Of a stretch of 41,831 nt of DNA, positions 5,101-28,081 are shown one piece after another. Position 1 is the stretch's first letter; the number at the start of each line of letters is the position of its first letter. The position numbers and the translations under genes are program-made. The DNA comes from Planctomycetota bacterium (GTDB taxonomy: Bacteria > Planctomycetota > Phycisphaerae > UBA1845), in the NCBI GenBank assembly GCA_030622435.1, contig JAUXGE010000001.1:1-41831 (forward strand), read 5' to 3'. The notes under the pieces were generated by a model. That model saw nothing but the letters and a program-made list of their open reading frames with translations. It did not search any database and had not been told where the DNA came from.

Positions 5101-7468
5101 CGTAGATGGGCTGCTCACAGCAGTTGTTTTCGCAACTGGTTCCGAACCCTTGCGAGATGCTCCCTGGCTCACAGGGAGCCTCGCAGGTTTCAGGATCACA
5201 GTCTACGTCGCTCAGGCAAGTGTCGGCGCCTACGCACGTTTCGCCGGATGGGCAATCCGCAGCGATGGCGCACGTGGTTGCGGTGGTCACGCTGCACGTA
5301 CCGGTGTTCGTGCAGAAGCCACCCGTTGTTTCCAGGCAATCACCTGCCGGATCACAGCACGCGCTCTTCAAGCATGCTTCCCTCGGGCGGTTGCACTCGC
5401 CCGTGGTATCGTCGCACGTGCCACCCGGGCAACCGCACGGATCGCCGAGGCATGTGCCGCCTGCTGGGCAATCGCACGGATCGCCGTCGTTGGCGCCACC
5501 TACGCACTCGGTTCCGTCGCAAGTGCCGGCGAAACATGCGTTGGCGCCGCAAGCCTCGCCGTCGCGGTCGCCGCCCTCACAGAGATCTTTGTCTCCGCCG
5601 ATGCAATCGGTGCCGTTGCATGTACCGCCGTTGGGGCAGAGATCGGGGTTGGCGCCGCAGGGCTCGCCTTCGCGTTCACCGCCGTCACAGATAATGCACT
5701 GTTCATCGGTGGAGCACGAGACGAAGGGATCGTTGCTGCAGACGATGCAGCCCGTTCCGTTGCCCTGGTACAGGTTCCCGGAACCCTCGCAATCCCAGCG
5801 CACCTCCTCGGTGCAAACGCCGGATTCGACATCGCAGCAGGCACCCACAGGTTCAGAGGTGTAATCGCCGACGATCTCGAACGCCAGGATATGCGGGTTC
5901 GGGGAAGTCAGTTCGGCGCACGACAGACAAGGCGCGCCGTCGATCCACAGCCTGGTCGGATCATTGGTTCCGGCCTCGACGACACCCGTCGACCACCAGG
6001 ACGACAGGTTGTCCTGCGAGAATTCCTCCGCCGGCTTCAAGGCCATGTAACCCTCGCACGGGATGACCGGCGACTCAGTGAAGATCACGGTCCGCAGCAC
6101 TTCCGTGCCGCTTTCAGCCGGGGAGGTAATGACGTCCTCGATGAAATTGCCGGCCATGTCATAGAACGTCACGCGCATGCGCGACCCGACACCATCCGGG
6201 AACCCGCCGACAAAGCGGATTGTCGTTGCCGCAAACCACTCGTCGCCCGTGGTGCAGCCCGCCAGCTTGTAGTCGTCGCCGATTTCCTTGTAGGGACGGC
6301 AAGTGCCCACGCCGGCCGGACCAAGCAGCTCGACCACCGACGTACCTTCGACGATTCCGGAGCTGTACTCGGGGCAGTCGTAATCCTCGCCGGCGTTGGG
6401 CAGATTAGGCGCGGCCAGGATGTCACAATCGCCGTCGTCCTCGGTCGTATTCGCCCTGTCGCCCAGCGCCAGCCAATCGCCTGTACAACCGGCGAGTTTC
6501 TCGCGCGAGCAGGCTGGGTCGCAGCACCGGCCCCACCCGCAAGTGTAGGGCGTGCCCTCTTTGCACACCGCGTTGGTACCGCAGGGAGGCGGTGATATGG
6601 TACGGCAGACACCGCCGCACAAGTCACCTACTTCCACCCCGCACTCGGCATTTGTCGTGCACGAATTGCCCGCGAGCGAACCGACACACTCCTGGGGTGT
6701 GCACTGCTCCACACCGTTGCAGTCCATCCCGTCGTCGCACGTATCAACGACCGCCTCCGGATCGCACGGCGTCACACAGGCGCCGGTTGCTGCGACTGAG
6801 CCTGTTACCGCGTCCTCGTCGCAGATCAACGCCGGGAACCGGTCGCACGGATCGGTCGGCATCTTCTCTTCGACGCAGTGGCCGTCAGGACAATCCTCGT
6901 CAACAGCGCAACCGAGCCCCTCTTTCGCGCCGGCATCGCACGCCAAACGTACCTGGCCCGTGATGTCGACACACAGCCCAAACCCGTCGCATAGCTCGTA
7001 CCCGTTGCAGAAGAATGGGTCGTTGCAAGGAGCGCATTCCACTGCGTCGGAAATCACGCACCCACCGGAAACACACTCGCCGACGAGGCACGGATCGCAT
7101 GCGTCGCACTCGATATCGAGCTCACACTCACCTTCAGCCGGACCGCCCGTACGCGCGGCGATCATTCCGGCGCTCGGCTGGTCCACGCCCTCGAGAATGA
7201 GCAACGGGACCTCCCCATTCACTCGGAACAACTCTGCCGCCGAACTTGTCGCATAAACAGGCGCAACACGGCCGATACGACTGGACGGTATCCCGTCCGG
7301 GTATGCCACCAAGCTGGATTGCAAACCCCTGGAGCCTACCTTAGCACCCCGCGTTACACCGTCGTTGTCCGACGGCGCACCGTGAAGTGATAGGCTGCAG
7401 GCGAGAATACCTGCTGCTACAACGCCCAACACTGGGCGCCATCCATATTTGCCGTTACACGTCTTCAT
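2126..7468 (-). CDS. giant (1780 aa) extremely Cys-rich secreted protein with a dockerin/EF-hand-like C-terminal module
   Basis: ORF from the track. A GGAGGAGG SD lies at 7478-7485. The N-terminal signal peptide is WRPVLGVVAAGILACSLSLHGAPSD. Cys-rich modules recur throughout (GACC..G.C....C..GG.Y, and G(E/D)xCGAN..GTC.GT(D/E)C). The C-terminus IGDVTAVLDKWKN...INITDVTYTLGAFLG resembles dockerin-type helices. Confidence 0.9.
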   Translation of the reverse strand: MKTCNGKYGWRPVLGVVAAGILACSLSLHGAPSDNDGVTRGAKVGSRGLQSSLVAYPDGIPSSRIGRVAPVYATSSAAELFRVNGEVPLLILEGVDQPSAGMIAARTGGPAEGECELDIECDACDPCLVGECVSGGCVISDAVECAPCNDPFFCNGYELCDGFGLCVDITGQVRLACDAGAKEGLGCAVDEDCPDGHCVEEKMPTDPCDRFPALICDEDAVTGSVAATGACVTPCDPEAVVDTCDDGMDCNGVEQCTPQECVGSLAGNSCTTNAECGVEVGDLCGGVCRTISPPPCGTNAVCKEGTPYTCGWGRCCDPACSREKLAGCTGDWLALGDRANTTEDDGDCDILAAPNLPNAGEDYDCPEYSSGIVEGTSVVELLGPAGVGTCRPYKEIGDDYKLAGCTTGDEWFAATTIRFVGGFPDGVGSRMRVTFYDMAGNFIEDVITSPAESGTEVLRTVIFTESPVIPCEGYMALKPAEEFSQDNLSSWWSTGVVEAGTNDPTRLWIDGAPCLSCAELTSPNPHILAFEIVGDYTSEPVGACCDVESGVCTEEVRWDCEGSGNLYQGNGTGCIVCSNDPFVSCSTDEQCIICDGGEREGEPCGANPDLCPNGGTCNGTDCIGGDKDLCEGGDRDGEACGANACFAGTCDGTECVGGANDGDPCDCPAGGTCLGDPCGCPGGTCDDTTGECNRPREACLKSACCDPAGDCLETTGGFCTNTGTCSVTTATTCAIAADCPSGETCVGADTCLSDVDCDPETCEAPCEPGSISQGFGTSCENNCCEQPIYAGWDTCALARTNVVVLNVTTTLQTLTFTGDNKQATFDDHTSGTCEAGIFDEDGGTRDRGWWHAFSLDSGDDNCSDIRIDMCCSEPIHQPQWAFLYSDCDPCGGVYNNTTAPPPIGNGIDGNDRGDPFCPNDNLWQTWTRLRDGIYYHPIYTATGGHFGQYQLHITAVTCPVAACCLPDGSCELYNELDCDEAGGYWLGFGNLPSNLNPVISCEFGACDFGACCLGPGQCQDDDGAMDRDLCVTTLGGTYYGGAQCDYPKQPCPTCEIQGEANCQATVGAAAGNYAGSSDLGIPPTGTAIADDFIPSGDSLKTICVWGTYMDDLGDGPTGSEGYEQFECVWKVPDGDESFRVRVYADSVPPGQPGALVGEQLVYGDAVGRGPVDSPGFFWTGFNVHGWTLELPTAIPLIADETHWLEVASNRNICPNGECEDGYCVSGDREGQSCNPDSTCWWSWYQTYQEDGFGNAWSLFGTDDRPDQNMEIGSGYVNGSGKSVDVQFCLGGPTGPLAFTLPDPPTGCCCDCEDTTTENVTLVHCELELGGVWTRDALCSDEGTCFNEGDDCLGARGQIAAGGLNCQSAPGESGALVVSDGLTGFDTTCYTTDGPEFAGGGSESALGKDIWFAYTTTCTGELVASMCMSGNGDGGYDSFMAMYHDPDFPDVCMCPGEGPPPSTTIGVSDEGCNGIADEGSGYMDGMIVFPGECYLVRLGGWGRNSEAAAGAGRGLVDIACTASLCFPSTPPEPETLPDLFGNPISQKGRYLSFIAQDDGHTGYVRVTFVDLPAPYDSWNGVEMYVNPPLPYCENAGVSTPVPPATECPEAVGGLPSDTFLASTLSCSPPEAYDWASAGVVHVFDEGIVPLGIYHIQMADSSCSTGVESSFSDPLVMQQTKWGDCVEDCTTIPCSPPLGTTNTGIGDVTAVLDKWKNLPGNLMKARADMEGSPAGDHRVPDQAINITDVTYTLGAFLGQQYPGPGFPPPSPRPCTGFIAGAP

Positions 7469-8681: not shown

Positions 8682-8755
<74 letters not shown>

Positions 8756-9727: not shown

Positions 9728-9818
9728 GGAGAGGTGGGTGAGTGGCTGAAACCAACGGTTTGCTAAACCGTCAGACGGGTTTACGCCTGTCTCGGGGGTT
9801 CGAATCCCCCCCTCTCCG
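9728..9818 (+). tRNA. tRNA-Ser (anticodon GCU), class II with long variable arm
   Basis: Acceptor GGAGAGG/CCTCTCC, anticodon arm ACGGT-TTGCTAA-ACCGT, long variable arm CAGACGGGTTTACGCCTGTCTC, T arm GGGGG-TTCGAAT-CCCCC, discriminator G. Confidence 0.95.
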
Positions 9819-10284: not shown

Positions 10285-10665
10285 ATGAAAAGACCGCTCC
10301 AAATCATAGGCCGGCGGCTGTGGGGGCGACCGGTCGAAACGGTCGCCCTGATTCTAATCGTGTGGGCTTTGGCACCCTCTGCCGCCCGCGGAGATTACGT
10401 CGAGGTTTTCCAGAGTTGGCAGGCGACGACTGCGGATACCTGAGAGACGAAGGACCTGACCTGTGCCCCGTCCAGCGTGCCGGCCAATGCCGTGGTGGAA
10501 ATCGCCGTGAGAAACATCCGCCACAACAGCGGGCGATGTGGTGTCGTGCGGGCCGTCGGCTCCAGCCTCAGCAGGCGGATCGGCACCTATAAAGCCGAGC
10601 GAGGCCGCAGTGTCTCGGCGCAGTTGACAGCAAGGAGGGCAGTCAGGCATGAGGATCTCAGGTAG
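10285..10665 (+). pseudogene. degenerate N-terminal paralog fragment of the downstream HAF-repeat protein (signal peptide plus first module) with an in-frame TGA
   Basis: MKRPLQIIGRRLWGRPVETVALILIVWALAPSAARG DYVEVFQSWQATTADT*ETKDLTCAPSSVPANAVVEIAVRNIRHNSGRCGVVRAVGSSLSRRI... parallels QYVESFESWSATSADTWQTKDLSGAPFSVPGSVVVEVAIRNVSTSESRFGGVRAVGSSLERRI in the intact gene. TGA at 10441-10443 replaces the Trp codon (TGG at 10931-10933 in the paralog). Confidence 0.6.
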
Positions 10666-13600
10666 GAACACACTTCGTTTGTACGCACGTCGCGCGCGAA
10701 CCGCACGCCATACGGCGTTGACTCTCAACGCACACCGAGGGTCTTTGTTGCACGGGACGATGCACGGCGGAGGCTCTCATGCAATCGATAACTCGAAGGC
10801 TCGCCGGCGAGCGTGTCGATGGAGGGTTCTCTCCGTTTTGGCTACCCTGGCCGTCGTCGGATTGCCTGAATTGGCCAGTGCTCAATACGTCGAGAGCTTC
10901 GAATCCTGGTCCGCAACATCCGCCGACACCTGGCAGACCAAGGACCTGAGTGGCGCGCCGTTCAGCGTGCCGGGCAGTGTGGTTGTCGAGGTCGCAATCC
11001 GGAACGTCAGCACCAGTGAGTCACGATTCGGCGGCGTTCGCGCGGTGGGCTCCAGTCTTGAGCGGCGCATCGATCTGCACGAAGCCGCGGGAGGCGGCAC
11101 CGACGTGCTTGTCATGCACGTTCAAACTGACGCGAGTTCACAAATACAGCATTACGCCGACAATACCGCCGATGTCGACTTCGTCCTGCTCGGCTATTGG
11201 GAGTGCGGAACTTATGTGGAGCTCTTTGGCACTTTTAGTGCCGCATCATCTTGGACGGACGAGGACCTGAACGCGTACGGCCTGGGCCCTGGCGACATCG
11301 CCGAAATCGTCATGACCAACGAGGCAGATTCGCAGGCGTATTATGCGGGCACACGAACCAATGGCTCCAGTCTCGACAGACGCGTCGTCCTGCAATCGAT
11401 CGACGACGGTGTGGACACCATCACCATGTTCGTCCAGGCCGACAACAGCGGGAGTGCCACGATTGAGGCTTACGCAGGTCACGTGATCAAGGTCGATTTC
11501 TACGTCGTCGGGTATTGGAGCCCGGCACCGGGAGTCTATACCGAGACGTTCACCGACATCGACAGCCCGTCCGCCGACGCCACCTGGGAAGATGAGGATC
11601 TCACGGCCTCGGGGGCAAGCGACGGGAGTGTAGTGGAGATTCTCTTCGCCAACAACATAACGACCCAGGAGAATGAACTGGGCATTCGTGCGAACGGGTC
11701 GTCCGTCGCCCGGCTGTTCGATCTGCGGGAGGAGAACGACGGCTCGGGTGGTGGAGACTTTGGACGTATGCACGCGTTGTCTGACGCGTCCGCGGTCATA
11801 GAGCTCCGGCATGAGGACGTCAGCGACGCACACAGCTTTCGCATGATCGGACACTGGAGCATCGGAGCCATTCTCGACGATCAGGTCACGGGCCAGGAGA
11901 CAGACGCATTCACGGAGCAGAGCGGGGAAACGGATGCCGAGCTCTTTGCCTTTGTACTCACCCCGTGCTCTGGAACTCTCACTATAACCGAGATCGTCTT
12001 CCGCCTTACGGACATCGCGGGTTTGACGGACCCCGACTGGGCCGACGTCGAGCTTGTCGTAGATGACAACTACAACGGCGACATCGGCACCGGAGAGACC
12101 ACGACCGTCGGTGGCGCAGGTTCCGTGAACACTGCGGCCGGGACCATCACATTCTCGACGTCCTTTGATATCACCACAGGTACTTCTTACATCCTCCGCG
12201 CCGATTTCGCGTCATTGTCCCTCGGAGATCAGGTCACTATCGGCCTGGATAAGAACGACATAACCGGAAGCGGACCGGTCACGGGGTCCGCCACTTCGGT
12301 GACGCACTTAAAGGGGTGCTATACGGCAACCTTCGAAGCGTGGACGGCCAGCTCCGCGGACACGTGGCAAACGCAGGACCTGAGCGGCCCTCCGTACAAT
12401 GTGCGAGCCAACGCCGTGGTCGAAGTGGCTATAATGAACGGCAACACTTCCAATCCCCGCTGGGGCGGCGTTCGTGCGGTTGGATCCAGCCTGGACCGGC
12501 GAGTGCAGCTTCAGGAGGCGGAAGGCGGGGGAGAAGACGTGTTGGTCATGCACGTCCAGGCCAACGCGAGCTCGCAGATTCAGCATTACTCCGACCTAAC
12601 GACGGACGTTGACTTCGTTCTGCTCGGCATCTGGACCTGTGGGACGTATGTGGAGCTCTTCGACACGTTCACGGCCGGCGCCAGCACATCGTGGCAAGAC
12701 CGCGACCTCTGCAGCTACGGTGTCGGCCCCGAGCATGTAGCCGAGATCATCATGACCAACGGCGACATCGGAAACGAATGGGAGGCCGGTGTGCGGACGA
12801 ATGGGTCGAGCCTCGAACGAAGACTCGACCTCCACGAAGCCGAGAACGGAGGGGTCGATACGGCCACGATGTTCGTGAAGACCGACGCCACGGCCGGCGC
12901 GACGATCGAGCTGTATGCCCAGAGCGACACAAACGTCGATTTCTACCTGGCCGGTTACTGGAGCGTCGCACCCCTTGCTTACAGTGAACTCTTTGCGGAC
13001 ATAGGAAGCCCCTCGATCGACGCCACATGGGAAGACATCGACTTGACGAGCAGCGGCGTGACCAACACCGCCGTGGTGGAGCTTGTACTCGCCAACGAAG
13101 CCCTCGTAGTAAACGTCAGCATGGGCGCTCGCGCGAACGGATCCTCGCTTGGGCGGCTCCTGGATATCCACGAGGCCCAAGGTGGAGGCAGCGACCTCGG
13201 ACATATGCACGTTCAGTCGGACGCAACGGCCACGATAGAATTCTACCACCAGGACGTGAGTGATGCGCATACGTTCCACCTGATTGGGTATTGGACAAAC
13301 TGCGACTCGTCAATTTCTTACAGCATCGCGGACCTGGGGGCCGTGACTCCTGCCGAGTCCAGCCTGGGCTACTCCATTAACGCATCAGGCGACGTGGCCG
13401 GTTACGACGAGGACGCCGGCGGTGACTCCGGTGCCTGGCTGTCGGAGTGCGGCTCATTTACCTCGCTTGGCACATTCGCCGGTGGTAGCGTCGCCGAAGC
13501 ACTGGGCATCAACAGCTCCGGAGAAGTAGTTGGCTGGTCCGACAACGCCGCCGGAAACCGCAAGGCGTTTTTCTACGACGGCAGCCTGACCGACCTGGAT

Positions 13601-15004
13601 ACACTTACCGACCGCACTGACAGCGAGGCCACCGCCGTCAACGCCAGCAGCGAAGTAGCTGGCACTGCCTACAACTCCGGCACACCTCCGACCGATCGGC
13701 TGGCCTTCATCTATCTTCCTGCACCCGCCTACACACTCGGCGCCGGGATCAACAGCCTCGGCACCCTTGGCGGCTACCATAGCGTGGCCATGGACATCAA
13801 CGATTCCGGCCAGGTCGTCGGTGGGTCGGAAAACGCCAGCGAGTACATGCGGCCCTTCCGTTGGCAGAACGGTTCGATGACCGATCTGGGCACGTTGGGA
13901 GGTGAGATAGGTTCTGTCACGCATCGGGCGAACGCCATAAACAGCTCGGGCAACATAGTCGGCACATCCTATACGGCCAGCGGGGATGCGCACGCCTTCC
14001 TCTGGGATGGCGGTATGACGGATCTTGGCGTTCTGACTGGTGGGGACACCAGCTGGGCACTAGGTATCAACGACAGCGATGAAGTTGTGGGCACCTCGAA
14101 TGTCACCGGAGGGGCTTTCCACGCCTTCATCTGGGACAGTACCAACGGGATTCGCAACCTGAACGACCTTGTAGATGCTGGGGAAGGCTGGACTCTGACC
14201 AGGGCGACGGGTATCAACGACGACGGTAGTATCACTGGTTGGGGGACGAACTCGAGCAGCGACGTACGTGCGTTCCTTCTGACGCCGTCATGTAGCGCAG
14301 GTGGGGGGGCAGCAGCCGCTGCCGCCATGATTCTCCTCGCCACAGGGGCGGGCACCACGGACACAGATGGGGTGTTGAACGAGCTCGTTGTCAGCGACGA
14401 GGGGGCACCGCTCGCTCAGATCGTTGTGGCCGACGCTGAACCTGACAAGCACTTCGCACTGACTGTAACGGCTCCAGGACCGGAATCGACCGGGGCTCCG
14501 GGTCCCGGCTTGGGTACCCTGGCGGGTTTCAACGATGGTGTCGCGCTCGACCACACATTGACGGTCGAGAGCCCGGCACTACAGGGGAGCCTCAGCCTCA
14601 CTGTCAGCATGACCTTTCAAGAGTATGAGCTGGACGATTGGAGTATTTCGCCGGCGGATGTCGAACTTCACGTTCTCGACACGACTCAGAGTCCATCACC
14701 GGGCACATGGATACCGGCTGGTGTGAACATCGGTCAGTCCGAGCCCACGGGCATCGTGGGTGAGTCCGGATTCGTGGTGTACACGGATGACAGTGTGGAC
14801 TTCTGGGCGGTGCGTGACGAGCCGGGCGTCTTCGCCGTCGGCGCCAAGTCTTCTACCCAAGACGATGCCGACGACAGCAATGTGACACCCGCGTCACCAA
14901 CGTTTTCACCTGTTTGCGGGCTCGGCATGATTCCTTGCGCTCTGGCCGCCATGGTCACGTTGATCTCGGCAAGAACGCGGCGGCGTCGGTCCCGCTCCCA
15001 TTAA
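10649..15004 (+). CDS. 1451-aa secreted protein: six copies of an unassigned ~135-aa module, HAF-family extracellular repeats, and a PEP-CTERM-like hydrophobic/Arg-rich tail
   Basis: ORF from the track. A strong AAGGAGGG SD lies at 10632-10639, 9 nt before the ATG at 10649. An alternative start at 10760 sits closer to the signal peptide RRRACRWRVLSVLATLAVVGLPELASA. HAF-type repeats (AHAFLWDGGMTDLGVLTGG...GINDSDEVVG) lie at roughly 13318-14290. The C-terminal tail is FSPVCGLGMIPCALAAMVTLISARTRRRRSRSH. Confidence 0.9.
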   Translation: MRISGRNTLRLYARRARTARHTALTLNAHRGSLLHGTMHGGGSHAIDNSKARRRACRWRVLSVLATLAVVGLPELASAQYVESFESWSATSADTWQTKDLSGAPFSVPGSVVVEVAIRNVSTSESRFGGVRAVGSSLERRIDLHEAAGGGTDVLVMHVQTDASSQIQHYADNTADVDFVLLGYWECGTYVELFGTFSAASSWTDEDLNAYGLGPGDIAEIVMTNEADSQAYYAGTRTNGSSLDRRVVLQSIDDGVDTITMFVQADNSGSATIEAYAGHVIKVDFYVVGYWSPAPGVYTETFTDIDSPSADATWEDEDLTASGASDGSVVEILFANNITTQENELGIRANGSSVARLFDLREENDGSGGGDFGRMHALSDASAVIELRHEDVSDAHSFRMIGHWSIGAILDDQVTGQETDAFTEQSGETDAELFAFVLTPCSGTLTITEIVFRLTDIAGLTDPDWADVELVVDDNYNGDIGTGETTTVGGAGSVNTAAGTITFSTSFDITTGTSYILRADFASLSLGDQVTIGLDKNDITGSGPVTGSATSVTHLKGCYTATFEAWTASSADTWQTQDLSGPPYNVRANAVVEVAIMNGNTSNPRWGGVRAVGSSLDRRVQLQEAEGGGEDVLVMHVQANASSQIQHYSDLTTDVDFVLLGIWTCGTYVELFDTFTAGASTSWQDRDLCSYGVGPEHVAEIIMTNGDIGNEWEAGVRTNGSSLERRLDLHEAENGGVDTATMFVKTDATAGATIELYAQSDTNVDFYLAGYWSVAPLAYSELFADIGSPSIDATWEDIDLTSSGVTNTAVVELVLANEALVVNVSMGARANGSSLGRLLDIHEAQGGGSDLGHMHVQSDATATIEFYHQDVSDAHTFHLIGYWTNCDSSISYSIADLGAVTPAESSLGYSINASGDVAGYDEDAGGDSGAWLSECGSFTSLGTFAGGSVAEALGINSSGEVVGWSDNAAGNRKAFFYDGSLTDLDTLTDRTDSEATAVNASSEVAGTAYNSGTPPTDRLAFIYLPAPAYTLGAGINSLGTLGGYHSVAMDINDSGQVVGGSENASEYMRPFRWQNGSMTDLGTLGGEIGSVTHRANAINSSGNIVGTSYTASGDAHAFLWDGGMTDLGVLTGGDTSWALGINDSDEVVGTSNVTGGAFHAFIWDSTNGIRNLNDLVDAGEGWTLTRATGINDDGSITGWGTNSSSDVRAFLLTPSCSAGGGAAAAAAMILLATGAGTTDTDGVLNELVVSDEGAPLAQIVVADAEPDKHFALTVTAPGPESTGAPGPGLGTLAGFNDGVALDHTLTVESPALQGSLSLTVSMTFQEYELDDWSISPADVELHVLDTTQSPSPGTWIPAGVNIGQSEPTGIVGESGFVVYTDDSVDFWAVRDEPGVFAVGAKSSTQDDADDSNVTPASPTFSPVCGLGMIPCALAAMVTLISARTRRRRSRSH
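10883..13300 (+). repeat. intragenic array: 3 + 3 copies of a ~135-aa module separated by an insert domain
   Basis: The recurrent signature is W(Q/E)(T/D)xDL ... VVE(V/I)..xN ... G(V/I)R(A/T)(V/N)GSSLxRRxxLxEAxGGGxD..xMHVQ.D....I(E/Q).Y......VDF.L.GYW. The second triplet starts at 12317 (CYTATFEAWTASSADTWQTQDL). Confidence 0.75.
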
Positions 15005-15070: not shown

Positions 15071-15403
15071 CTACTGGCAGGCTCCTAGCTGGCAGTCGTT
15101 GGTGCAGCAATCAGAATCGGCGAAGCAAAGACCGCCTGATTCGACGCATACCTCATTCGTACACACACCGCCGCTACAGACCATGTCATCACAGCACAGC
15201 TCTTGTCCCGGACACACATGACCGGCCGGGTAGCAGCTGTGGTTGCTGCCCGCAGCGAGCGCTTCTTGTGGATTGAGCGCAAGCACGGCGGGGGTGACAT
15301 AGGCAAGTTTGACCGCGCCGCGTAAGAAGTTGCGACGGCTGGGTGGGACGTTGGGCTTCGCGCCCCTCGAGGGAGAAATACACTTCGTCCCACTTGTCAA
15401 CAA
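15071..15403 (-). other. C-terminal module of the kinase ORF: twin-arginine-like leader plus tandem knottin-like Cys units (possible separate cistron from in-frame TTG 15403/15400)
   Basis: ...PPSRRNFLRGAVKLAYVTPAVLALNPQEALA / AGSNHSCYPAGHVCPGQELCCDDMVCSGGVCTNEVCVESGGLCFADSDCCTNDCQLGACQ*. The Cys spacing is C-6-C-5-CC-4-C-4-C followed by C-6-C-5-CC-3-C-4-C. There is no stop between the kinase domain and this module, and no in-frame ATG. Confidence 0.5.
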
Positions 15404-16324
15404 TCCGGCATTGTGCGCGGGTTCCGGTGCACGACACAGTGAAGATTCGATAAGGTCACAGGTGTCCTCGATCGCGCCTGCTTCAAGACGGAAGCACTGC
15501 GCTTGACTCACAGCGTCACCCAGGACCGACAGTAGCTGATCGCTGAGCACGTTTCGGTTGAAAGTGCACTCGGCCAGGTCGAGTAGCGCACGGGCACGAG
15601 AGATCGGATACAGATGAGGCCGGTCGGTTCCCGTGTACTTGGGGAAAACGATGTATCGGATCGGGGTCGGATCGGGGGCCATGTACGGCTCGGCAACATG
15701 GGGATTGATATACCCCACCCGTCCCTTGAATCCTTTAACGTAATAACGGTGCCCAGTGAAAGACAGTCCTAGACGTCGGACGACCTCAAAGGAACCGGCC
15801 TTGATACACAAGGCCTTGGGAAACGGGTGTAAGCGCAACGTTTTGCGGTCAATCAGAGCGAATTCATCGGATAAATATGTCCATCCGCGCGCCAACAGCC
15901 CGGCTGCCAGGGTGGATTTCCCGGATCCCGGGGCAGCGGCGAAAACGAACCCGCGCCCCAAGTGCGCCATCGTACCTGCATGTACCTGTAGGTACTCAGG
16001 ATGGTTTGCGATTACTCGCCAGTTGATCCCCCACTCTACAAACGGGAGCACCTCCCGGCGTGAACGTTCCCTGCCGATTTCCTCGCCGTCACCGTAAATG
16101 CGGTAGCGCCGGCCGCGCAGCCTCGAGCGTCCTGTGTCGCGGATCACCATTCGGATGGCCTGCTCCGGCACCGGAGACGGTCGGTCATACCCGTGATAAA
16201 GAACTCTCAAGTCGTCAAGGAGCTTCTGATCATCGCTCTGCACCGTGACGTTGATGGATCCAATCTTGCAGTGGAGATACTGCTCAGTGGAGGCGCCGGC
16301 GGTTTGAGCGACACTGTCGGTCAT
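15071..16324 (-). CDS. HPr-kinase-related P-loop kinase (first ~300 aa), continuous in frame with a Tat-like leader and a 12-Cys peptide module
   Basis: ORF from the track (417 aa). The Walker A region reads GFVFAAAPGSGKSTLAAGLLARGWTYLSDEFALID, which is HprK-like. Its start overlaps the PqqD-like stop by ATGA (16321-16324). Confidence 0.85.
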   Translation of the reverse strand: MTDSVAQTAGASTEQYLHCKIGSINVTVQSDDQKLLDDLRVLYHGYDRPSPVPEQAIRMVIRDTGRSRLRGRRYRIYGDGEEIGRERSRREVLPFVEWGINWRVIANHPEYLQVHAGTMAHLGRGFVFAAAPGSGKSTLAAGLLARGWTYLSDEFALIDRKTLRLHPFPKALCIKAGSFEVVRRLGLSFTGHRYYVKGFKGRVGYINPHVAEPYMAPDPTPIRYIVFPKYTGTDRPHLYPISRARALLDLAECTFNRNVLSDQLLSVLGDAVSQAQCFRLEAGAIEDTCDLIESSLCRAPEPAHNAGLLTSGTKCISPSRGAKPNVPPSRRNFLRGAVKLAYVTPAVLALNPQEALAAGSNHSCYPAGHVCPGQELCCDDMVCSGGVCTNEVCVESGGLCFADSDCCTNDCQLGACQ

Positions 16325-16671
16325 GACTCACGTCCAAGGTCGAGCAATCGCGAGTGGGAGAACATGGCAACAATATGCTCAACGTGAGCGAGCGCATCTT
16401 CTGGTGCCACGTCGTAGGTTTCGGACAACGACTCAGCGACTTGGCGCATCGTTGTCCGGCCGTCACAGTTGCGAAATACAGCCAAAGCTGTCTGGTTCAG
16501 CAGATACATCCCGTGCGTTCTTGTATCGAAAATAACCGCCTCACCGTCGATCTCATAATCGTGAAGTTCGCTCCGCCGAGCGGGGATGGCGATCTCCGTA
16601 TCTGTCAACGGTGGCGGAGTTGCCAGCGCCTGCCCACCTGTTCCGTCTTCTCGCTGCATCAACAGGGACAT
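16321..16671 (-). CDS. PqqD-family peptide chaperone / RiPP recognition element (116 aa)
   Basis: The central region YEIDGEAVIFDTRTHGMYLLNQTALAVFRNCDGRTTMRQVAESLSETYDVAPEDALAHVEHIVAMF has the typical PqqD/RRE pattern. A GGAGG SD lies 6 nt upstream. It is translationally coupled to the kinase. Confidence 0.85.
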   Translation of the reverse strand: MSLLMQREDGTGGQALATPPPLTDTEIAIPARRSELHDYEIDGEAVIFDTRTHGMYLLNQTALAVFRNCDGRTTMRQVAESLSETYDVAPEDALAHVEHIVAMFSHSRLLDLGRES

Positions 16672-16717
16672 TGCGTTGCCTCCGTCGTAATATCAGCGCG
16701 TGACTCGAGCGAGCAAG

Positions 16718-16939
16718 TCATGCTGACTGATCTCCATTCGTCCTCGAGCGTGGTGTGCGTTGCACAGACCACTCCGCGATGACATCCTCGGGCGGACCTT
16801 CCTCGATAACAACGCCCTGAATCACGGGTGGAACAAAAGGCAGCTTGTCACGGAAATCGCCATGCGCGGGTTTGCCTTCGTTCAGAAAACGTTCGATCTC
16901 TCGAAAATCGTCATTCGATTTGGGTTGATTATCAGTCAT
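16718..16939 (-). CDS. small acidic hypothetical protein (73 aa), candidate precursor or partner peptide of the RRE-kinase pair
   Basis: ORF from the track: MTDNQPKSNDDFREIERFLNEGKPAHGDFRDKLPFVPPVIQGVVIEEGPPEDVIAEWSVQRTPRSRTNGDQSA. It is co-directional with, and 46 nt upstream of, the PqqD-like gene. GGAG lies about 13 nt upstream. I recognise no homology. Confidence 0.5.
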   Translation of the reverse strand: MTDNQPKSNDDFREIERFLNEGKPAHGDFRDKLPFVPPVIQGVVIEEGPPEDVIAEWSVQRTPRSRTNGDQSA

Positions 16940-17681
16940 ACCGATCTCGAATCTCCATCACCAGGCACGGCAAGAGCGTCGAAAAATGCAACTACCATTC
17001 GATCCTCCAGCCTGCCCCAATAAAAACACCTTAACACGCGTTGTTTGCAAACGGTTATCACGGACGGACTCGGTGCAGGCCGGGCTCATAATAATAGGCC
17101 CAAGCCGGCATCTTGGCAGGACTTCCATGCCGAGGTGCCCCTCCGTAGCGTGCGGTCCCCCGTGAGATGATATATCGGGTTCTCCCTCACGCCTCATCCC
17201 CAAAAAAAGCAAGCTCTGTCGTCCGATACTCGTTGGCCGGAGGCCATGTTTCGCCGGATGCGCGTCCGTTCCTGACGGTCGCTGTTATGATTGATAGCGC
17301 AGCATATTATTAGGATCACTTTTATAGGCCCCCGGGCGCGGGCATCACGGTGACCCACGCGCAAGACAAATGAGATTGCAGCAATAAGACCTGGTGTTAT
17401 CCGGGCCTGGATAGTAACGGCTAGCTTTGTACGGTCAGCGTTCAAGCAATGTCACCGCACCGAGCACTGGTCCAATATTCCCGCTCGGCCCCTGGGGCGA
17501 AGGGGGATAAGTGAGGTTCGATCCTGTGCATGTCTTCTGCAACCTGGGCGCGTGGTGGTCCATCACGTTTCAGAGCAAGCTCTATTTCCCTGCAGCGGTC
17601 GGAATTCTCTTTTGATCAGCGATTGAGCAGACTCCGGTGCGACACGAAATCCGAGGATGCTCCAGAGCAAGCTCTATCCAA

Positions 17682-17737
17682 GTGTAGCGTCCGATTGCGA
17701 GTTTGACCCATCAGCAAATCGGTTTCCGACGCTACAC
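17682..17737 (-). other. long interrupted hairpin (GTGTAGCGTC...GACGCTACAC, with inner CCGATT/AATCGG)
   Basis: The 10-bp outer arms at 17682-17691 and 17728-17737 are perfect complements, and a 6-bp inner pair also forms. It lies about 70 nt downstream of the dockerin-remnant stop, so it may be a relic terminator. Confidence 0.35.
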
Positions 17738-17809
17738 GTGCATTGAGTGCTCAATAGTGCCAGAGTGTGGCATCAGATAATCACCTCCAGGCGCGGGGTG
17801 ATCAGGGTT

Positions 17810-18022
17810 TCAATCACCTGCGAGCGTTCGCTGGAAGCCGGCGAAGTCTTTGAGGTCGATGTCGCCTGTAACGCTCGCGTCGAAGTCGAAGGCTTCGCAG
17901 CCTGCGTCGAACGGGCCGTTATCGGGGCCCGCGGGATCGCGGTACTGCACGATACCAGCAGCACCTGTCCGTGCCCCTTGACGTTGCAGCGTGACGTAAA
18001 GGCAGGTAGCCGGGGTGGAGAT
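17810..18022 (-). pseudogene. remnant of a dockerin-type C-terminal domain (70 open codons, no start)
   Basis: The minus frame ending at TGA 17810-17812 reads ...GIVQYRDPAGPDNGPFDAGCEAFDFDASVTGDIDLKDFAGFQRTLAGD*. This resembles CDLDKDGDADMTDLRTFQESFTGE* at the end of the 1306-aa protein. The frame is closed upstream by TAG at 18023-18025. The ORF-track entry 17773-18285 is in a different frame. Confidence 0.45.
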
Positions 18023-18092
18023 CTACCAGCTCCCTCGGCTACGAAGCAGGCAGGCCACCCGGGCCTTTGGTTTTGGCGGGAAATGGTTGTTG

Positions 18093-18232
18093 CAGTCACA
18101 CTTTCAGATGGCTTCGTTTGGTATCCTTTTTTCATCGTATCCAGTCCCTCAAGGTGGAAGGGATATGTTGGGATCGGTTGCGGCGTTTTGTTGGAGATGA
18201 CACTGGGCATTGTGGAAGTCCTTTGTTGAGAG
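18093..18232. repeat. intergenic repeat, copy 1 (core plus tail)
   Basis: The core is CAGTCACACTTTCAGATGGCTTCGTTTGGTATCCTTTTTTCATCG. The tail TTGGAGATGACACTGGGCATTGTGGAAGTCCTTTGTTGAGAGG matches the tail of copy 3. Confidence 0.7.
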
Positions 18233-18294
18233 GAAGTTGCGCGCTGTGCGATCCTTCCCTTCGGGATAGGCGAAGGACCTACCAATCGAGCTTA

Positions 18295-18345
18295 CAGTCA
18301 AACTTTCAGATGGCTTCGTTTCGTATCTTTGTTTCATTGTGGTTG
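18295..18345. repeat. intergenic repeat, copy 2 (core only)
   Basis: CAGTCAAACTTTCAGATGGCTTCGTTTCGTATCTTTGTTTCATTGTGG. It shares TCCGTCGAG after the core with copy 3. Confidence 0.7.
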
Positions 18346-18493
18346 GTCCGTCGAGTCGAACGTCGGGGCTGCTGACCACCGCTGTAAACATCTTTGGAAA
18401 GGGGGTATCTCCTTGACTCCACCAGCTGCAGGCACGCCTCCCGATACGAACGTCAGACGCAATGATCCCATTCCCGGCTGGGCATTTGTTATC

Positions 18494-18571
18494 CGCAGAT
18501 TGCGCAGATGACACAGATTGTGCTGCTCGAGTCGCCTTGCTGCTGCGTTTCTGCGCAATCTGCGCAATCTG
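18494..18571. repeat. palindromic array of the 9-mer CAGATTG(C/T)G: two forward, two tandem reverse
   Basis: Forward copies lie at 18496-18504 and 18514-18522. Reverse copies (cgcaatctg) lie at 18554-18562 and 18563-18571. 18494-18508 is perfectly complementary to 18550-18564 (15 bp), and an alternative register shifted by 9 nt also pairs. Confidence 0.7.
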
Positions 18572-18665
18572 TGGATTCTCTCTCGGGACGTTGGACGAGT
18601 ACTGGAGCAAAGCAGATAGCCCCTTAAGCATGATGTCCCCCGATTTCGATGGGGGCGGGTCGTTC

Positions 18666-18839
18666 CAGTCAGACTTTCAGATGGGTTCGTTTCGTATATT
18701 CATTTTTCATTGTGGCTCGTCCGTCGAGGTCGGGAGGGGGCGTTGGGGCGGATTTGGCGCGGCCTTGGGGTGGCGGCAGTTGGCATCGCATTGGATTTTT
18801 GAGACGACTTTGGGCATGGTTGAAGTTCCTTTGCTATGG
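18666..18839. repeat. intergenic repeat, copy 3 (core plus tail)
   Basis: The core is CAGTCAGACTTTCAGATGGGTTCGTTTCGTATATTCATTTTTCATTGTGG. The tail is TTTGAGACGACTTTGGGCATGGTTGAAGTTCCTTTGCTATGG. Confidence 0.7.
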
Positions 18840-19804
18840 TGGGGCGTTTTCCCCCACCCATTCCGGCGATGTGACGAGAAGGCCTTCCGCTTCGTTTGGG
18901 CGCCGGAATGAATGGGGCACCAGCGGTGCGCGCGGCGTCGGGCTCTACAGTAATAACTTCACGGGCGCTCGCTCTGGAAGGTGTGTTTGAGCGATCAGGA
19001 GGAATGGTGAATGCGGAAGGCGGAGGGATGAAGGAAGAAGGAAGGGGAATTACGAAAGGGTTTTTGATGCGAGGGGCGGCTCGAGTACGGCAGGCAACGG
19101 GTGGTTGGTTCGCATGCCCACCAGCGGAGGCAATTATCTCATGAAAGAGGGCGACCCGGCTGATGTGCTGCCCAAGAGCGGCGGCAGTAGAACGATTGGG
19201 AAACGGATTCGACTCCCCCGCCGTTGAAGCGGGCTGGCCACCGGTCGCTAAAGCAAGTCGGCGCTTCGCCCGGGCATGCCACCTGACGACATGGGACCCG
19301 CTGTCCGGCTTTGCCAGTGTGCCCCCCGCCCGCCCGCGCGAGGGCTACACAGGTAATCTAACCCTCTCTCCCCGCGTCGCGCCCCAACACCCAATTTCGC
19401 GGGAATTCGTACGTGGTTGGCACGTGGTCACTGATTTTCGCATCTCCAGCGATTTTGGCCCCCCGCCCTACCCGGCTCCCAGCGTACCTGGAAGCTGGTC
19501 TGGGCGCTGATCCTTCCCATCGAGCGAAATGAAGCCCTCGCGCGCGCGCAAGGTCCGATATTCCGTCTATCCTCCGGCTCCGCATATCTTCCAGAGGGTA
19601 TCACGCACCAAACCGGGGGGCTTGGCTCGGTTTTGGGCCTTCTACGGGGGGCCGTTGGCTTCCTCAACCGCCACTCTCACGCACGTATACGCACGTTGGC
19701 CCGTGCGCCCCTTAACGTCGGGTGCTGCAGCCCACGCTTCGGCTACTCCAACGAAGCTGCATTTGAGGCGACAGCTCGGCGGATTGGCATTCGGAAGAGG
19801 CGCA

Positions 19805-20071
19805 TCAGGGGTAGACGTAGTTGATGATGGCGACGACGCACCTCATGCAATCTTCCTGGAGGTAGAGCGGTTCTTCGCCACAGCCCTCGTAAGCTATTCC
19901 TAGAGCGTCAAGCTTGGAAACCCCCGCGTCTCTTGCGGCATCGAACACCGTAATGCCCTCGACCAGATTGTCGCCCTCCGAGTACCCGGCGCATGCGCTA
20001 GTCACGTTGTTCCCCAGGGCCCCGCACCCCGCTATAAGCAATAACCCGACCAGAACCATCAGTAGTTTCAT
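19805..20071 (-). CDS. small lipoprotein (88 aa)
   Basis: MKLLMVLVGLLLIAGCGALG carries a lipobox (LIAGC). AGGAGAA lies 6 nt upstream of the ATG at 20071. The longer ORF-track start at 20176 reads through the conserved leader and is unlikely. Confidence 0.7.
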   Translation of the reverse strand: MKLLMVLVGLLLIAGCGALGNNVTSACAGYSEGDNLVEGITVFDAARDAGVSKLDALGIAYEGCGEEPLYLQEDCMRCVVAIINYVYP

Positions 20072-23891: not shown

Positions 23892-26800
23892 CTACTCCAT
23901 CTCCCAGTTCGGGATGCGGCCTGGGGTCCAGGGGGCGCCGGCGGCTTCGAGTCGTGCTTCGAGCCCGGTGAGGTCCTTTTGGACGAGCTTTCGCAGCCCG
24001 GACAGCACCTCGGTGAACTCGGTGCCCGCGGATCGGTAGGCGTCGCGTTGGGTTTGTGTCGGGGGCGAGGTCACGGACCATTGCATGGCCGAACGGACCC
24101 AGGTCCTGATGGCGGGCGGCGCGGCGTCCTGGCGTTTGCCGATGGTGCGGTCGCCGCTGAGTTTCGTACGCAGTGTGTTGAGCTGCTGCTGTAGTCCGTG
24201 GATCTCCACGAGCATGGCGGGGTCCGCCGCCGGAGTGTCGAGCACTGCCTTGCGAATGTGGTCGATGCGCGTCTGCGCCTCGTTCACCACTCTCATGGCA
24301 CCCCATGCCGCACGCTGCAAACGTGCGACCTTCATACGGAAGGCCATAACCTCGTCACGGTCCTCGGCCGCAAACGTCGCCAGTTCGAGAGGAACAACCT
24401 CGAACGATTCCGGGCCGACTAGTTCGGTGACCTCACCATCGACCTCCTTGACAAACGTGACGGTGTACGTGCCCGGAAGAGCCAGCGGGCCAGCCGGCGG
24501 CTGCCACCAGGGCATGCGATCGGACTCCTTCCTGAGTGACGTCGGCGTGGAGGCCGGGTACCGCAGGTTCCACGACGTCCGGTGAATCCCCTTGTTGCGT
24601 GAACCGGTGATGCGGCGCACAACTTCGCCCGCATCGTCCTTGACGATCAGGAAAACGGAAGGTGCCTTCTCCTGGTCTTCCGCCCGGAGTTCCTCGATGG
24701 TGGCGTAATTGATCGGTTTGCCCGCCTTGTCGGCTTTCTTCTCGGCCTCCTGGCGGCGCTCTTTCCGAGTCGTGATCTTCTCTTTCAGGTAGTAAGTGAA
24801 CACGGCGCCGAAAGGCGGGTTCGGGGCGACGTAGAACGACGCACCCTGAGAGCCTTTACCAGAGGAGCTGCGCAGGCGGCTGGTCTCGATATAGCGCAGT
24901 GCCGTCTTGATCGGAAACATCGCCACGTCACGCCCGAGGAGCTCTTCGTCCGCGACGCGGAGCGGCGTGTAGTCGTCGAGAATGTAGAACCCGCGCCCGA
25001 ACGTTCCCAGAACCAGGTCGTTCTCGCGTTTCTGAATGGCCAGGTCGCGCACGGCTATCGTGGGCACGCCGCTCAGTTTGAGCCAGTGCTTGCCGCCGTC
25101 CAGGGTGAAGTATGCGCCGAACTCGGTGCCCACGAACAGCAGATCCGGTTTCAGGTGATCCTCGACGAGTGCATAGACGACGTCGCGCTTGGGAAGATCG
25201 CCTGCGATGGAAACCCACGTGTCCCCGCGATCCGTGCTCTTTAGGACGTACGGCTTGAAGTCACCGCTCTTGTGGTTGTCGAACGTCGCGTACACGGTAT
25301 CGGGATCATGTTGCGACGCCTCGAGCCGGCTGACGTACGTCATGTCCGGAACACCGGGGAACAAGGCTATGCGGCGCCACGTCTCGCCGCCGTCACCCGT
25401 AACGTGGATCAGACCATCGTCCGTCCCGACGTAGACGAGCCCTTCCACGAGTGACGACTCGGTCAGCGCAACGGCGTTCCCGAAGACCGACGTGTGCAGG
25501 CTTTTGGACACGGCGTCAGGACTTTGGATCTTACCCATGACCTCCAGGGAATTGCGGTCCAGTCCGCGCGACAGCTCGCCGCTGACGACGGTCCAACTGT
25601 TTCCGCGGTCATCGGACCGGAAGAGCTTGTTGGCCGCTACGTACAGGCGCGTGTGGCTGTGTGGGCTGATGATCAGTGGGGTGTCCCAGTTCCACCGGTA
25701 CATTTCCCCGGGGGCTTCGCGCGGTTTGATATCGACGGTTTCGCCGCTGCGGCGGTCATGCCTGACGAGGCCGCCGTACTGCCATAGACTGTAGACGATG
25801 TTGGGATCTTCCGGGTCGATGCGGGACTGATAGCCGTCACCGCCGACCGTGATGAACCAGTCTTCGTTGGCGATGCCGCCCGGGCTGATCGTTCTCGAGG
25901 GTCCGCCTTGCGTGCTGTTGTCCTGGGTACCACCGTAGACGTAGTAGAAGGGCTCGGAGTTGTCGACGGCAACGCGGTAGAACTGCGTCACGGGCAGGTT
26001 GGGGATATAGCGCCAGTTCGACCCGCGGTCGTGGCTCTCGTAAATGCCACCATCAGATCCGACCAGCAGGTGGTCGTTGTTCTCGGGGTTGATCCACAGC
26101 GCGTGGTCGTCCACGTGGCGGAAACGGCGCGGTGCGCGTTTGAACGTCTTACCGCCGTCCTCGGTCACATGCATGATCGTGTCGAGCGCATACACCCGGT
26201 CCGCTTTGATCGGATCGCAGACAATCTCGTTGTAGTACTGCGGGCTGGTCGTCTCGTATTTGCTTCGCTTCTCCCACGTCTCCCCTCGGTTAGTGGATCG
26301 GTAGAAGCCACTCTTGCCGTCGGCGGCCTCGACGATCGCGTAGACGACATCGGGATCGGCAGGGGCAACACACATGCCAATCCGTCCCATGTCCACCTTA
26401 GGTAGACCTCGCGTGAGTTTCCGCCAGGTTGCCCCGGCGTCGTCGGATTTGTAGACCGCCGACTCGGGACCGCCGTTTACCAGCGTCCAGACATGCCGGC
26501 GCCGTTGATACACCGAGGCGTAGAGCACGTCAGGGTCGCGCGGGTCCATGTGCACCTCGTTGACGCCGGTGTCGTCGCTGACGTGCAGGATACGCTCCCA
26601 CGTCTTGCCTCCGTCGGTGGTTTGGTACAGGCCGCGGTCACCGCCGGATCGCCAGAGCGGTCCCTGGGCAGCGGCGTATACGGTGTCCGAGTCTCGCGGA
26701 TCGACGAGTATCATGCCGATGTGCTCGGACTCCTTTAGACCCATGTGGTCCCAGTTCTTACCGCCGTCGCGCGTGCGGTAGACGCCGTCACCGAAGCCGA

Positions 26801-27182: not shown

Positions 27183-28081
27183 GGTCTTTCCCTTGTTCAT
27201 TACTTTGTCACTCGCATCTTGTGGGAAACCGCAGGCGCGCATTCGTACGCGCGCAGGCCGAAACCCGCAGCTCACCATGCAAAAGTGGAAGAACCTTCAG
27301 TGATAATATCGGACGCTGGTGGCGGGACTTGAGGTGCCATGGATGGCGCGCTTTCTGATTAAGTGAGATAGGCGAGGCAAGGATAGACTGAACCGCCGCG
27401 CGTGCGGCAATGGGCTTCGGCTTAACCGTGCATCCCCGTCCATTGGGTGAGTCCGCGTTCGTTCTTCTGCCTTTCACCCTCCGTCTCCTTCAATCCCACG
27501 GGCAAACTATGTGGACCGCAAGATGTCGTCAACCCTGAGATAACCAGGAGCTTTTCGAACCTAACGTCTGATATTCACCTGCTGAGAAGCAGAAACTGAG
27601 TGTCAGCCACTCATCCCCGTTTGCCGGAGCGTCTGTGAACCACTCGGGCTCAGTCCAGCGTGCCAGGGCTTTGGGCGCCCGTGGGCAGGCGCATCCATAT
27701 TCTCGGACTTGTACGATCTGATGCCGTCAACGGCGACTCGGGGTCTCCCGGTTATGTCTTGATCCGGCGAGGAGAAACTAAGATACTGGTCTTTATAGTG
27801 TTTGCGATGTTGTTTTCGGCCGAGGGGGATGGCGCGCCGGTTTTGACGCGTCTGGTGAAGCTCACGCCACACCGGAAGGTTCCGGTGCCTTTCCCATAGT
27901 GGAGCTGCGAAGAGACTAATGGCCTCCATATAGCGGAGAGGCCGCAGCCACACAGTGTCTTGGCACGCTGGTCTCGCGTCTGGGACAGGTGTGCCACTCC
28001 ATGGATCGGTCGTCCGGGCGTCGCGACATTGACGTGTGTGCAGCAGCCTCAATCAGGCAATACCGGAGAGGAGTGAATAGC

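Follow-up and report, generated by a model that had tools for sequence, protein, structure and literature searches.

The 41,831-nucleotide stretch analysed here (the window; contig JAUXGE010000001.1 of the Planctomycetota bacterium assembly GCA_030622435.1) carries on its minus strand a compact cassette in which an HPr kinase-related P-loop kinase, encoded next to a PqqD-type recognition element for peptides that are made by ribosomes and modified after translation (RiPPs), ends in a complete precursor peptide. The last ~90 residues of the 417-aa kinase open reading frame (ORF; 15071–16324, minus strand, stop codon included), as delimited by the ORF call and by alignment of homologues, are an in-frame fusion of a leader with twin-arginine translocation (Tat)-type features and a Cys-rich core. 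Our reading is that the cassette encodes, in Planctomycetota, a RiPP pathway that depends on a kinase and is of the type represented by the linear polyphosphorylated peptides (LPPs) of Bacillota and by the HPr-rel-A system, and the probability of this reading, with the mechanism proposed below, is put at about 0.55.

Composition of the cassette

As an earlier note on this DNA had described, three co-directional ORFs are tightly packed on the minus strand: a 73-aa acidic ORF (orf73, 16939–16718), a 116-aa ORF (16671–16321) and the 417-aa ORF (16324–15071). The 46-nt gap 5′ of the second, PqqD-like gene contains a GGAGG 8 nt before its ATG, and an ATGA overlap joins its stop codon to the kinase start; this order, with PqqD immediately upstream of the kinase and in the same direction, is also found in Sphingomonas (L090).

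Residues 16–296 of the 417-aa protein (15437–16279, minus strand) match the HprK-related kinase A family, in line with the assignment first proposed for this region, the TIGR04352 (HprK_rel_A) profile aligning to residues 18–293 over model positions 2–278 of 280 (E 4.8e-52, 176.8 bits). The Walker A P-loop (G133-S-G-K-S-T138; 15911–15928, minus strand) is accompanied by an SDEF motif, and G133, G135, K136, S137, T138 and D153-E154 are unchanged in 84 homologues. AlphaFold2 (AF2) models the domain with a predicted local distance difference test score (pLDDT) above 90, and Foldseek matches this model to ATP-dependent phosphoenolpyruvate carboxykinase (ATP-PEPCK; E 5e-6) and to HPr kinase/phosphatase (HprK/P), which are two branches of one P-loop kinase fold; a sequence search of solved structures with the kinase gave no match. 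The domain, which is under purifying selection (ratio of nonsynonymous to synonymous substitution rates, dN/dS, 0.22), is by motif and model a predicted HprK/PEPCK-fold kinase with its P-loop motifs intact.

The 116-aa protein (16321–16671, minus strand), already suspected to be PqqD-like, passes the Pfam PqqD profile (E 3.9e-13, 50 bits; cutoff 23.4), and the profiles lasso_PqqD_Strm (35.2 bits) and ScmD (31.5 bits) outscore TIGR04353, the PqqD chaperone family of the HPr-rel-A system. Its AF2 model, with pLDDT above 90 for residues 30–110, combines three strands and three helices in the topology of a RiPP recognition element (RRE). The best Foldseek matches (template modelling scores, TM, of 0.73–0.84) are PqqD itself (5sxy) and two leader-bound lasso-peptide RREs of the B1 type, namely TfuB1 (6jx3_B, TM 0.78) and TbiB1 (5v1u, TM 0.81–0.84); searched by sequence, deposited structures gave weak matches to PqqD and TfuB1 and to no other deposited RRE. 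The protein, also under purifying selection (dN/dS 0.24), is as modelled a discrete RRE. These family assignments and predicted folds are established.

A precursor peptide fused to the kinase

Beyond the kinase domain, a variable linker (residues 297–328; 15341–15436, minus strand), which is disordered in the model (pLDDT <50) and corresponds to the n-region of free-standing precursors, leads into a twin-arginine leader (S329–A357; 15254–15340, minus strand) whose motif is common to 67 modules in 65 loci. In addition to its Tat-type features, S-R-R-N-F-L-R-G at the start (twin arginines 330–331) and an AxA site at the end (A355-L-A357), the leader contains a YxxPxV stretch (Y342-V-T-P345-A-V347) with Y342 at −16 relative to the predicted cleavage after AxA. 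The predicted 60-aa core (A358–Q417; 15074–15253, minus strand), delimited by homology to free-standing precursors, starts with A358-G-S360-N-H-S-C, so that Ser360 is core position +3, and its 12 Cys are arranged in two C-x6-C-x5-CC-x3/4-C-x4-C modules (C364–C388 and C393–C416), showing twice the C-C-CC-C-C framework of knottin type; its pLDDT is 61–80. The tail as a whole has a dN/dS of 0.46, and an NCBIfam search with the precursors matched no curated model. The Cys-rich peptide module that had been noticed in the letters is real, and can be refined: what the kinase carries is an entire precursor, with both a Tat-type leader and a core. An internal translation start for the tail was set aside, as the linker has no in-frame Met in the window or in the related locus L084 and offers one weak TTG candidate.

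When residues 318–417 are used as a phmmer query, 80 relatives are recovered, mostly proteins of 70–125 aa, and the free-standing double-module precursors P0135, P0136, P0138 and P0139 are 49–58% identical to the window protein across the entire query. In P0175 this module is attached to a PqqD domain, and in P0188 (ORF 2057–3988 of L014) to an NTP_transf_5-SET protein. Joined as it is, depending on the lineage, to the kinase, to PqqD or to NTP_transf_5, the module has strong Rosetta-stone support as the common client of all three.

The kinase homologues, every one of them from a Phycisphaerae/Planctomycetota assembly, fall into two length classes, ~295–310 aa and ~385–420 aa. The long kinases continue after the domain with a linker, an [S/T]RRxxL motif with invariant RR, K-L-A-Y-V-x-P-x-V, a hydrophobic segment, AxA and a Cys-rich domain; of 120 homologue clusters, 35 have this kinase-precursor fusion, the number of Cys being 6 or 12, and the reading frame is always kept despite indels in the sequence-variable linker (~31–43 aa). 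At short-kinase loci the module is instead a separate small gene between NTP_transf_5 and PqqD, and the twin-arginine motif of free-standing homologues is N-terminal, after an n-region of 25–30 aa; the precursor of L002, for example, reads MSNRPV…TRRSFLGKSGRKALYLTPVILSLTARQAKAA followed by SVSITPG. A neighbour-joining tree of kinase domains places the fused forms in two groups, and as this tree is not trusted enough, two independent fusions are not claimed.

Conservation of the leader was surveyed at 86 Phycisphaerae/Planctomycetota loci by motif search of six-frame translations, with reversed sequences as controls. The survey gave 67 distinct modules in 65 loci, and the motif matched 70 times in the real translations and once in the reversed ones. 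The regular expression behind these counts itself demands RR, an aromatic residue and Pro; what is informative in them is recurrence, position and the fixed distance to AxA and Ser. Of the modules, 37 have their end ≤400 nt upstream of PqqD, another 14 are on the same strand at a greater upstream distance, and in 12 cases the module is part of the kinase ORF. [S/T]RR is present in 63 of the 67, the spacing from RR to the aromatic residue is 12–13 in all, and Tyr or Phe stands at −16 from the best AxA in 52 of 67 (at −17 in 9); 60 modules have AxA, 47 a basic residue (K/R/H) in the c-region and 63 a Ser or Thr within core positions +1 to +3. The cores are either Cys-rich (6 or 12 Cys) or Ser-rich peptides of 5–8 aa, and 18 of 25 short Cys-free cores end in Ser. 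Since the PqqD-kinase pair recurs in 82–85 related loci and the leader motif occurs 70 times versus once in reversed sequence, the arrangement is far beyond chance, and the conservation, geometry and fusions of the precursor module are established.

The two halves of the window core have separate affinities. The first Cys module (15161–15235; SNHSCYPAGHVC…CC…C…C) is close to free-standing cores of L063, L073, L074, L067 and L082, whose kinases are only ~40% identical to that of the window, and the second (C.[ST]D.DCC…C.LG.C) is like the single module of the other fused clade, a pattern that suggests shuffling of modules among cores.

orf73, an apparent leader paralogue without twin arginines

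The slot held elsewhere by free-standing precursors is occupied in the window by orf73 (16718–16939, minus strand), which looks like a leader paralogue because KLPFVPPTV, to be compared with its own KLPFVPPVIQ (residues 32–41; 16817–16846, minus strand), sits inside bona fide RR leaders (P0141, P0144). This stretch, an RRE-binding-type [Y/F]xxPx[V/I] motif kept in all orf73 homologues, fits the published RRE-binding motif [Y/W]xxPx[L/V/I/F/A]. The aromatic-x-x-Pro motif is present in orf73; twin arginines and AxA are absent.

Homologues of the same length are found in P0134 (75% identity) and L084 (53%). A protein search with orf73 returned only two proteins, and wider conservation was read from the DNA of the loci: L085 has a version of 75 aa on the upstream side of its NTP_transf_5 gene, another version is present in L001, and an orf73-like module stands in frame at the N-terminus of the PqqD ORFs of L004, L005, L012 and L019. 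The conserved module reads K-[L/R]-x-[Y/F]-x-x-P-x-[V/I]…L-P-x-D-V-x-A-E-W. A search of PqqD homologues for such orf73-PqqD fusions gave only 12 close matches, none of them extended. Against L084, orf73 has an overall dN/dS of 0.69, compared with 0.22–0.24 for the enzymes. In the 181-aa protein P0140, an orf73-like motif (KRPFVPPSL) is followed ~50 residues later by a full RR leader and a double Cys module, so that the two leader types can share one polypeptide. It may be that orf73 is a further substrate, or that it regulates the RRE or competes for it.

Neighbourhoods of related cassettes

The conserved core of the 85 related loci consists of the kinase (85), PqqD (82) and, up- or downstream on the same strand, NTP_transf_5 (~69 of 85). 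The only other recurrent neighbours are GT2 glycosyltransferases and GT4/GT1 glycosyltransferases (16 loci each, on the same strand), which follow the kinase or NTP_transf_5 gene (for example L040 4796–5857 and L011 9595–11187), and a HAF-repeat protein (13 loci). Because PsmN, the lasso-cluster homologue of the transferase, puts a hexose on phospho-Ser, as seen in pseudomycoidin, the glycosyltransferase genes fit a glycosylation of the phosphorylated peptide. Genes for a cyclase, protease, radical SAM enzyme, ABC transporter or signal peptidase are not among the recurrent neighbours within ±7 kb of the 85 loci, several of which sit on contigs of more than 100 kb.

The window itself contains no lasso cyclase, B2 protease, radical SAM enzyme or exporter, as had been claimed, nor a signal peptidase, glycosyltransferase or NTP_transf_5; the statement that no other maturase accompanies the cassette thus holds for the window and fails for the relatives, most of which have NTP_transf_5 and some glycosyltransferases. 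In the 41.8 kb, tblastn with two NTP_transf_5 queries (PF14907) found neither gene nor pseudogene (best E 0.23). L084 also lacks NTP_transf_5, as do several more distant fused-type loci; the 58%-identical L085 still has it, and the loss is therefore taken to be recent in the window lineage. Some cassette NTP_transf_5 proteins carry a C-terminal SET domain (L002 6151–7440; P0188, Pfam SET E 1.7e-11), which, being of the lysine methyltransferase type, hints at an extra modification in those lineages.

Proposed mechanism and alternatives

In the proposed mechanism, the leader's YxxPxV stretch would join PqqD as an extra β-strand, and the kinase would phosphorylate a Ser that lies early in the core (Ser360, +3), acting either in cis or inside an oligomer. 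The leader would then serve as a Tat-type export signal: the kinase would remain in the cytoplasm as the core at its C-terminus is carried across, and the cell's housekeeping signal peptidase I would cut after AxA, releasing into the periplasm or medium a disulfide-rich, knottin-like phosphopeptide. General Tat export and cleavage by signal peptidase I are what we infer because counterparts of the LPP peptidase LppS and exporter LppD are lacking and the leader has Tat-consensus features and AxA. In the same scheme orf73 may compete for or regulate the RRE, or be a second, non-exported substrate, and in relatives NTP_transf_5, sometimes with glycosyltransferases, would decorate the phosphate further, a step presumably lost in the window lineage. 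The kinase-dependent peptide modification proposed in the earlier note is supported to this extent: both enzymes have significant family matches, lasso cyclase and protease genes do not stand next to the cassette in related loci, and the small acidic ORF and the Cys-rich peptide are both conserved across related neighbourhoods.

Several observations weigh against this mechanism. Phosphorylation, RRE binding, export and cleavage are inferred for every member of the family and observed in none. TIGR04352 is by far the best-scoring family for the kinase, yet its 176.8 bits are below the curated cutoff of 200, and TIGR04353 scores the PqqD protein at 27.3 bits (E 5.2e-6), under its curated 35 bits. 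The Pfam TAT_signal profile gives the leader E 0.15 and 12.5 bits (threshold 22.7); the twin arginines are internal in the window protein (leader 329–357 of 417), which is atypical of Tat substrates, and in the AF2 model the leader has low confidence and is not docked onto the kinase. Conotoxin and omega-toxin hidden Markov models (HMMs) score the Cys-rich cores below threshold (E 1.6e-4 to 0.2). The absence of NTP_transf_5 means that the product may differ from those of the relatives, and the leader counts come from a pattern that itself demands RR, the aromatic residue and Pro.

A rather unlikely alternative is that the kinase/RRE pathway is as described and the leader is no Tat signal, its RR and hydrophobic stretch being recognised by the kinase or the nucleotidyltransferase, with removal and export performed by unlinked proteins or the product remaining intracellular. 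The sub-threshold TAT_signal score and the internal position of the leader in every fusion form speak for it. Against it, recognition by an enzyme offers no obvious reason for the near-invariant [S/T]RRxF[L/V], the basic c-region residue and the AxA at fixed distance, a compartment that is oxidising is needed by Cys-rich cores, and no dedicated peptidase or exporter is linked.

It is decidedly improbable that the protein is a signalling kinase whose C-terminal extension is a membrane anchor plus a Cys-rich periplasmic domain for sensing or binding, and that it phosphorylates another protein, such as orf73 or the HAF protein, and not its own tail. The hydrophobic segment could span a membrane, orf73 has an RRE-type motif and a Ser/Thr-containing tail, and synteny with the HAF neighbour holds in six loci of the fused type; but the extension is homologous over its full length to free-standing peptides of 70–125 aa, most loci have the peptide as a separate gene beside an extension-free kinase, the same module is also found on PqqD and NTP_transf_5, and both the AxA site and a Ser at +1 to +3 are conserved.

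Decay is a very unlikely explanation. A remnant without functional product, in which NTP_transf_5 and the twin arginines of orf73 were lost and the fusion arose through loss of a stop codon, would account for the missing transferase gene in 41.8 kb when the 58%-identical L085 has one, for the dN/dS of 0.69 of orf73 and for the ~3 kb of apparently non-coding, repeat-bearing DNA upstream. Against it stand the purifying selection on kinase and PqqD (dN/dS 0.22 and 0.24) with intact catalytic motifs, the retention of the NTP-less architecture in L084 and six more distant fused-type loci, and the in-frame fusions of 35 clusters despite their linker indels. Scarcely credible is a tailoring part of a phosphorylated lasso-peptide cluster of paeninodin type with cyclase and protease outside the window: the RRE is most like lasso B1 proteins and an HprK-like kinase with an NTP-transferase is typical of such tailoring, but among the 85 related loci, several on contigs above 100 kb, neither an Asn-synthetase-like cyclase nor a B2 protease is a recurrent neighbour within ±7 kb, and the cores (60-aa Cys-rich or 5–8-aa Ser-rich) do not show the Gly/Asp-Glu pattern of a lasso ring. 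The neighbourhood and dN/dS evidence led us to reject the readings as a lasso cluster, a defence system or a pseudogene.

An extension of the kinase-dependent RiPP pathway is offered as a possibility, and a tentative one: the leader may be bifunctional, at once Tat signal and RRE ligand, with PqqD masking the signal, like a Tat 'proofreading' chaperone, until the core has been modified by the kinase and, in relatives, also by the nucleotidyltransferase. The kinase-precursor fusion would then work only once as an enzyme, passing the phospho-knottin at its C-terminus through Tat and being cut away from it by signal peptidase I, and the HPr-rel-A system of Proteobacteria and Planctomycetota might be a pre-export modification machine for Tat substrates.

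Relation to known systems

The closest characterised system is the LPP family of Bacillota, encoded by LppA/K/B/S/D/N and described by its authors as restricted to that phylum (Popov et al., Nat Commun 2026, PMC13381572). There, the precursor LppA has Y-16, P-13 and V-11, LppB is the RRE, LppK poly-phosphorylates core Ser3, LppS is a dedicated type-I signal peptidase (archaeal-type) that needs presentation of the leader by the RRE, LppD is an MsbA-like exporter and LppN an NTP-transferase (PMC13381572). With this functionally analogous system characterised in 2026, the description of the cassette as uncharacterised is partly outdated. Shared with LPP are the discrete PqqD-like RRE, the HprK-like kinase and, in the relatives only, an NTP_transf_5-type transferase; a precursor with YxxPxV ~16 residues before the leader cleavage site (predicted here) and a Ser at core +3; a cut of type-I signal-peptidase type (also predicted here); and the lack of a macrolactam cyclase. 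In contrast to LPP, neither an LppS peptidase nor an MsbA-like exporter is found in the window or among recurrent neighbours of the 85 loci, the leader has a twin-arginine consensus and AxA in place of the …HQxIxFET motif, the cores either contain many Cys (6 or 12) or are very short with a terminal Ser, the precursor may be fused to kinase, PqqD or transferase, and the window is itself without a transferase. The dedicated peptidase and exporter of LPP appear to be replaced here by a general Tat-type leader.

The HPr-rel-A system (NCBIfam TIGR04352, TIGR04353 and a nucleotidyltransferase) resembles the cassette in full-length coverage of the kinase, in the PqqD-to-kinase order, in the nucleotidyltransferase, which the relatives of the window also carry, and in the twin-arginine-leader protein that adjoins proteobacterial examples. 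It differs in that the window proteins score below the curated cutoffs (176.8 vs 200; 27.3 vs 35) and that proteobacterial substrates are proteins of 100–210 aa rather than short peptides; no substrate or function has been published for it, and the only fusion known there is the PqqD-kinase of Mesorhizobium. In Sphingomonas, a hypothetical protein (…TSRRMLMLGAVGASTVIAVRPALA followed by QTTAS) precedes the PqqD chaperone, kinase A and nucleotidyltransferase; in Vibrio, a protein with …FSRRRFIRSAAISSPILLSIKSPSAWA followed by GGYNSS precedes kinase A and the nucleotidyltransferase; and in Mesorhizobium the PqqD-kinase fusion is followed by an unannotated ORF (…QRRQFLQNCGRFAVATPPTVVLMLSATGSARAALA followed by TSAGSSS…). 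From this small sample, the sequences suggest that twin-arginine-leader clients are a general property of the HPr-rel-A system. On the Mesorhizobium sp. INR15 plasmid NZ_CP045497 (L091), the kinase with its N-terminal PqqD-like domain spans 4449–5615, and the plus-strand ORF at 5643–6017 encodes a twin-arginine leader followed by a repetitive, Thr-rich core; the 'hypothetical protein' annotated across it on the minus strand is probably a mis-annotation. Three more distant rhizobial plasmid matches (E ~1e-5), in which no twin-arginine ORF was found, may be another family.

In the paeninodin and pseudomycoidin clusters (PadeK/PsmK, PsmN), an HprK-like kinase likewise acts on a Ser of a ribosomal precursor and a B1-type RRE recognises [Y/W]xxP, and the Ser-terminal short cores (18 of 25) recall the C-terminal phospho-Ser of the lasso peptides; the cassette differs by its Tat-type leader and by the lack of lasso cyclase, B2 protease and ABC exporter. 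Bufferins, RiPPs modified by multinuclear non-haem iron-dependent oxidases (MNIOs), use a general secretory (Sec) signal peptide as leader (10.1101/2024.03.18.585515) and share with the window precursor the Cys, the general-secretion leader and export and leader removal by housekeeping machinery. Their signal is of Sec and not of Tat type, their modification is a thiooxazole instead of a presumed phosphorylation, and their signal peptide is dispensable for modification, whereas here it embeds the RRE-binding motif. In borosins (OphMA-type), the modifying enzyme and a C-terminal core are one polypeptide; as these are fungal or bacterial N-methyltransferases that have neither an RRE nor an export signal, they are comparable in architecture only. 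In the literature that could be searched, the term 'HprK-related kinase' is absent, and no paper was found that links twin-arginine signals with PqqD-type RREs. We read the cassette as a pathway of the LPP/HPr-rel-A type distinguished by a Tat-type leader, a knottin-like core and the enzyme-substrate fusion.

Other features of the window

A HAF-repeat surface protein of 1451 aa (10649–15004, plus strand; TIGR02913 E 3e-47) is convergent to the kinase, as the earlier note had it, and an orthologue (~50% identity) has the same position in L001, L004, L009, L012 and L019. Convergence is seen in six fused-type loci whose kinases are only 41–50% identical; the protein is a syntenic neighbour, and a functional link to the cassette is unproven. 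At its end (as in L001 9225–13319), a conserved P-x-C-G-[L/V]-G-M-[I/V]-P motif is followed by a hydrophobic helix and then by a tail rich in Arg (…SPVCGLGMIPCALAAMVTLISARTRRRRSRSH); the PEP-CTERM-like tail claimed for it is matched by no PEP-CTERM HMM, although the architecture resembles a sorting signal of that type.

The place of the relatives' NTP_transf_5, upstream of orf73, is taken up in the window by a stretch of ~3 kb that appears to be non-coding (17000–20000) and contains three copies of a 64-nt direct repeat (18090–18153, 18292–18355 and 18663–18726; 61–80% identity) and inverted repeats at 17672–17747 and 18491–18576. An Rfam scan of the window found two tRNAs only (8682–8755 and 9728–9818), and nothing matched the repeat region. 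The window also encodes giant predicted surface or secreted proteins at 2126–7468 and 23892–27278 (minus strand) and at 27989–31909 and 31902–39683 (plus strand), two of which (1780 and 1306 aa) have no Pfam match; of the others, one is a 1128-aa Sortilin/BNR protein and one, of 2593 aa, has CARDB and thrombospondin type-3 repeats. A glutamine synthetase lies at 39732–41150.

Implications

The HprK-related kinase A/PqqD cassette has been annotated for years without a known substrate, and the present analysis points to twin-arginine-leader peptides and small proteins, adjacent or fused to the enzymes, as the substrates of HPr-rel-A systems. If this is true, the phosphorylated-peptide chemistry of LPP would extend from Bacillota to Planctomycetota and Proteobacteria, and the leader described here would be the first case found of a RiPP-type leader doubling as a Tat signal, with bufferins as the Sec precedent. 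The natural enzyme-substrate fusions would be handy for biochemical reconstitution, and the pathway would predict a family of bacterial phosphorylated, knottin-like secreted peptides.

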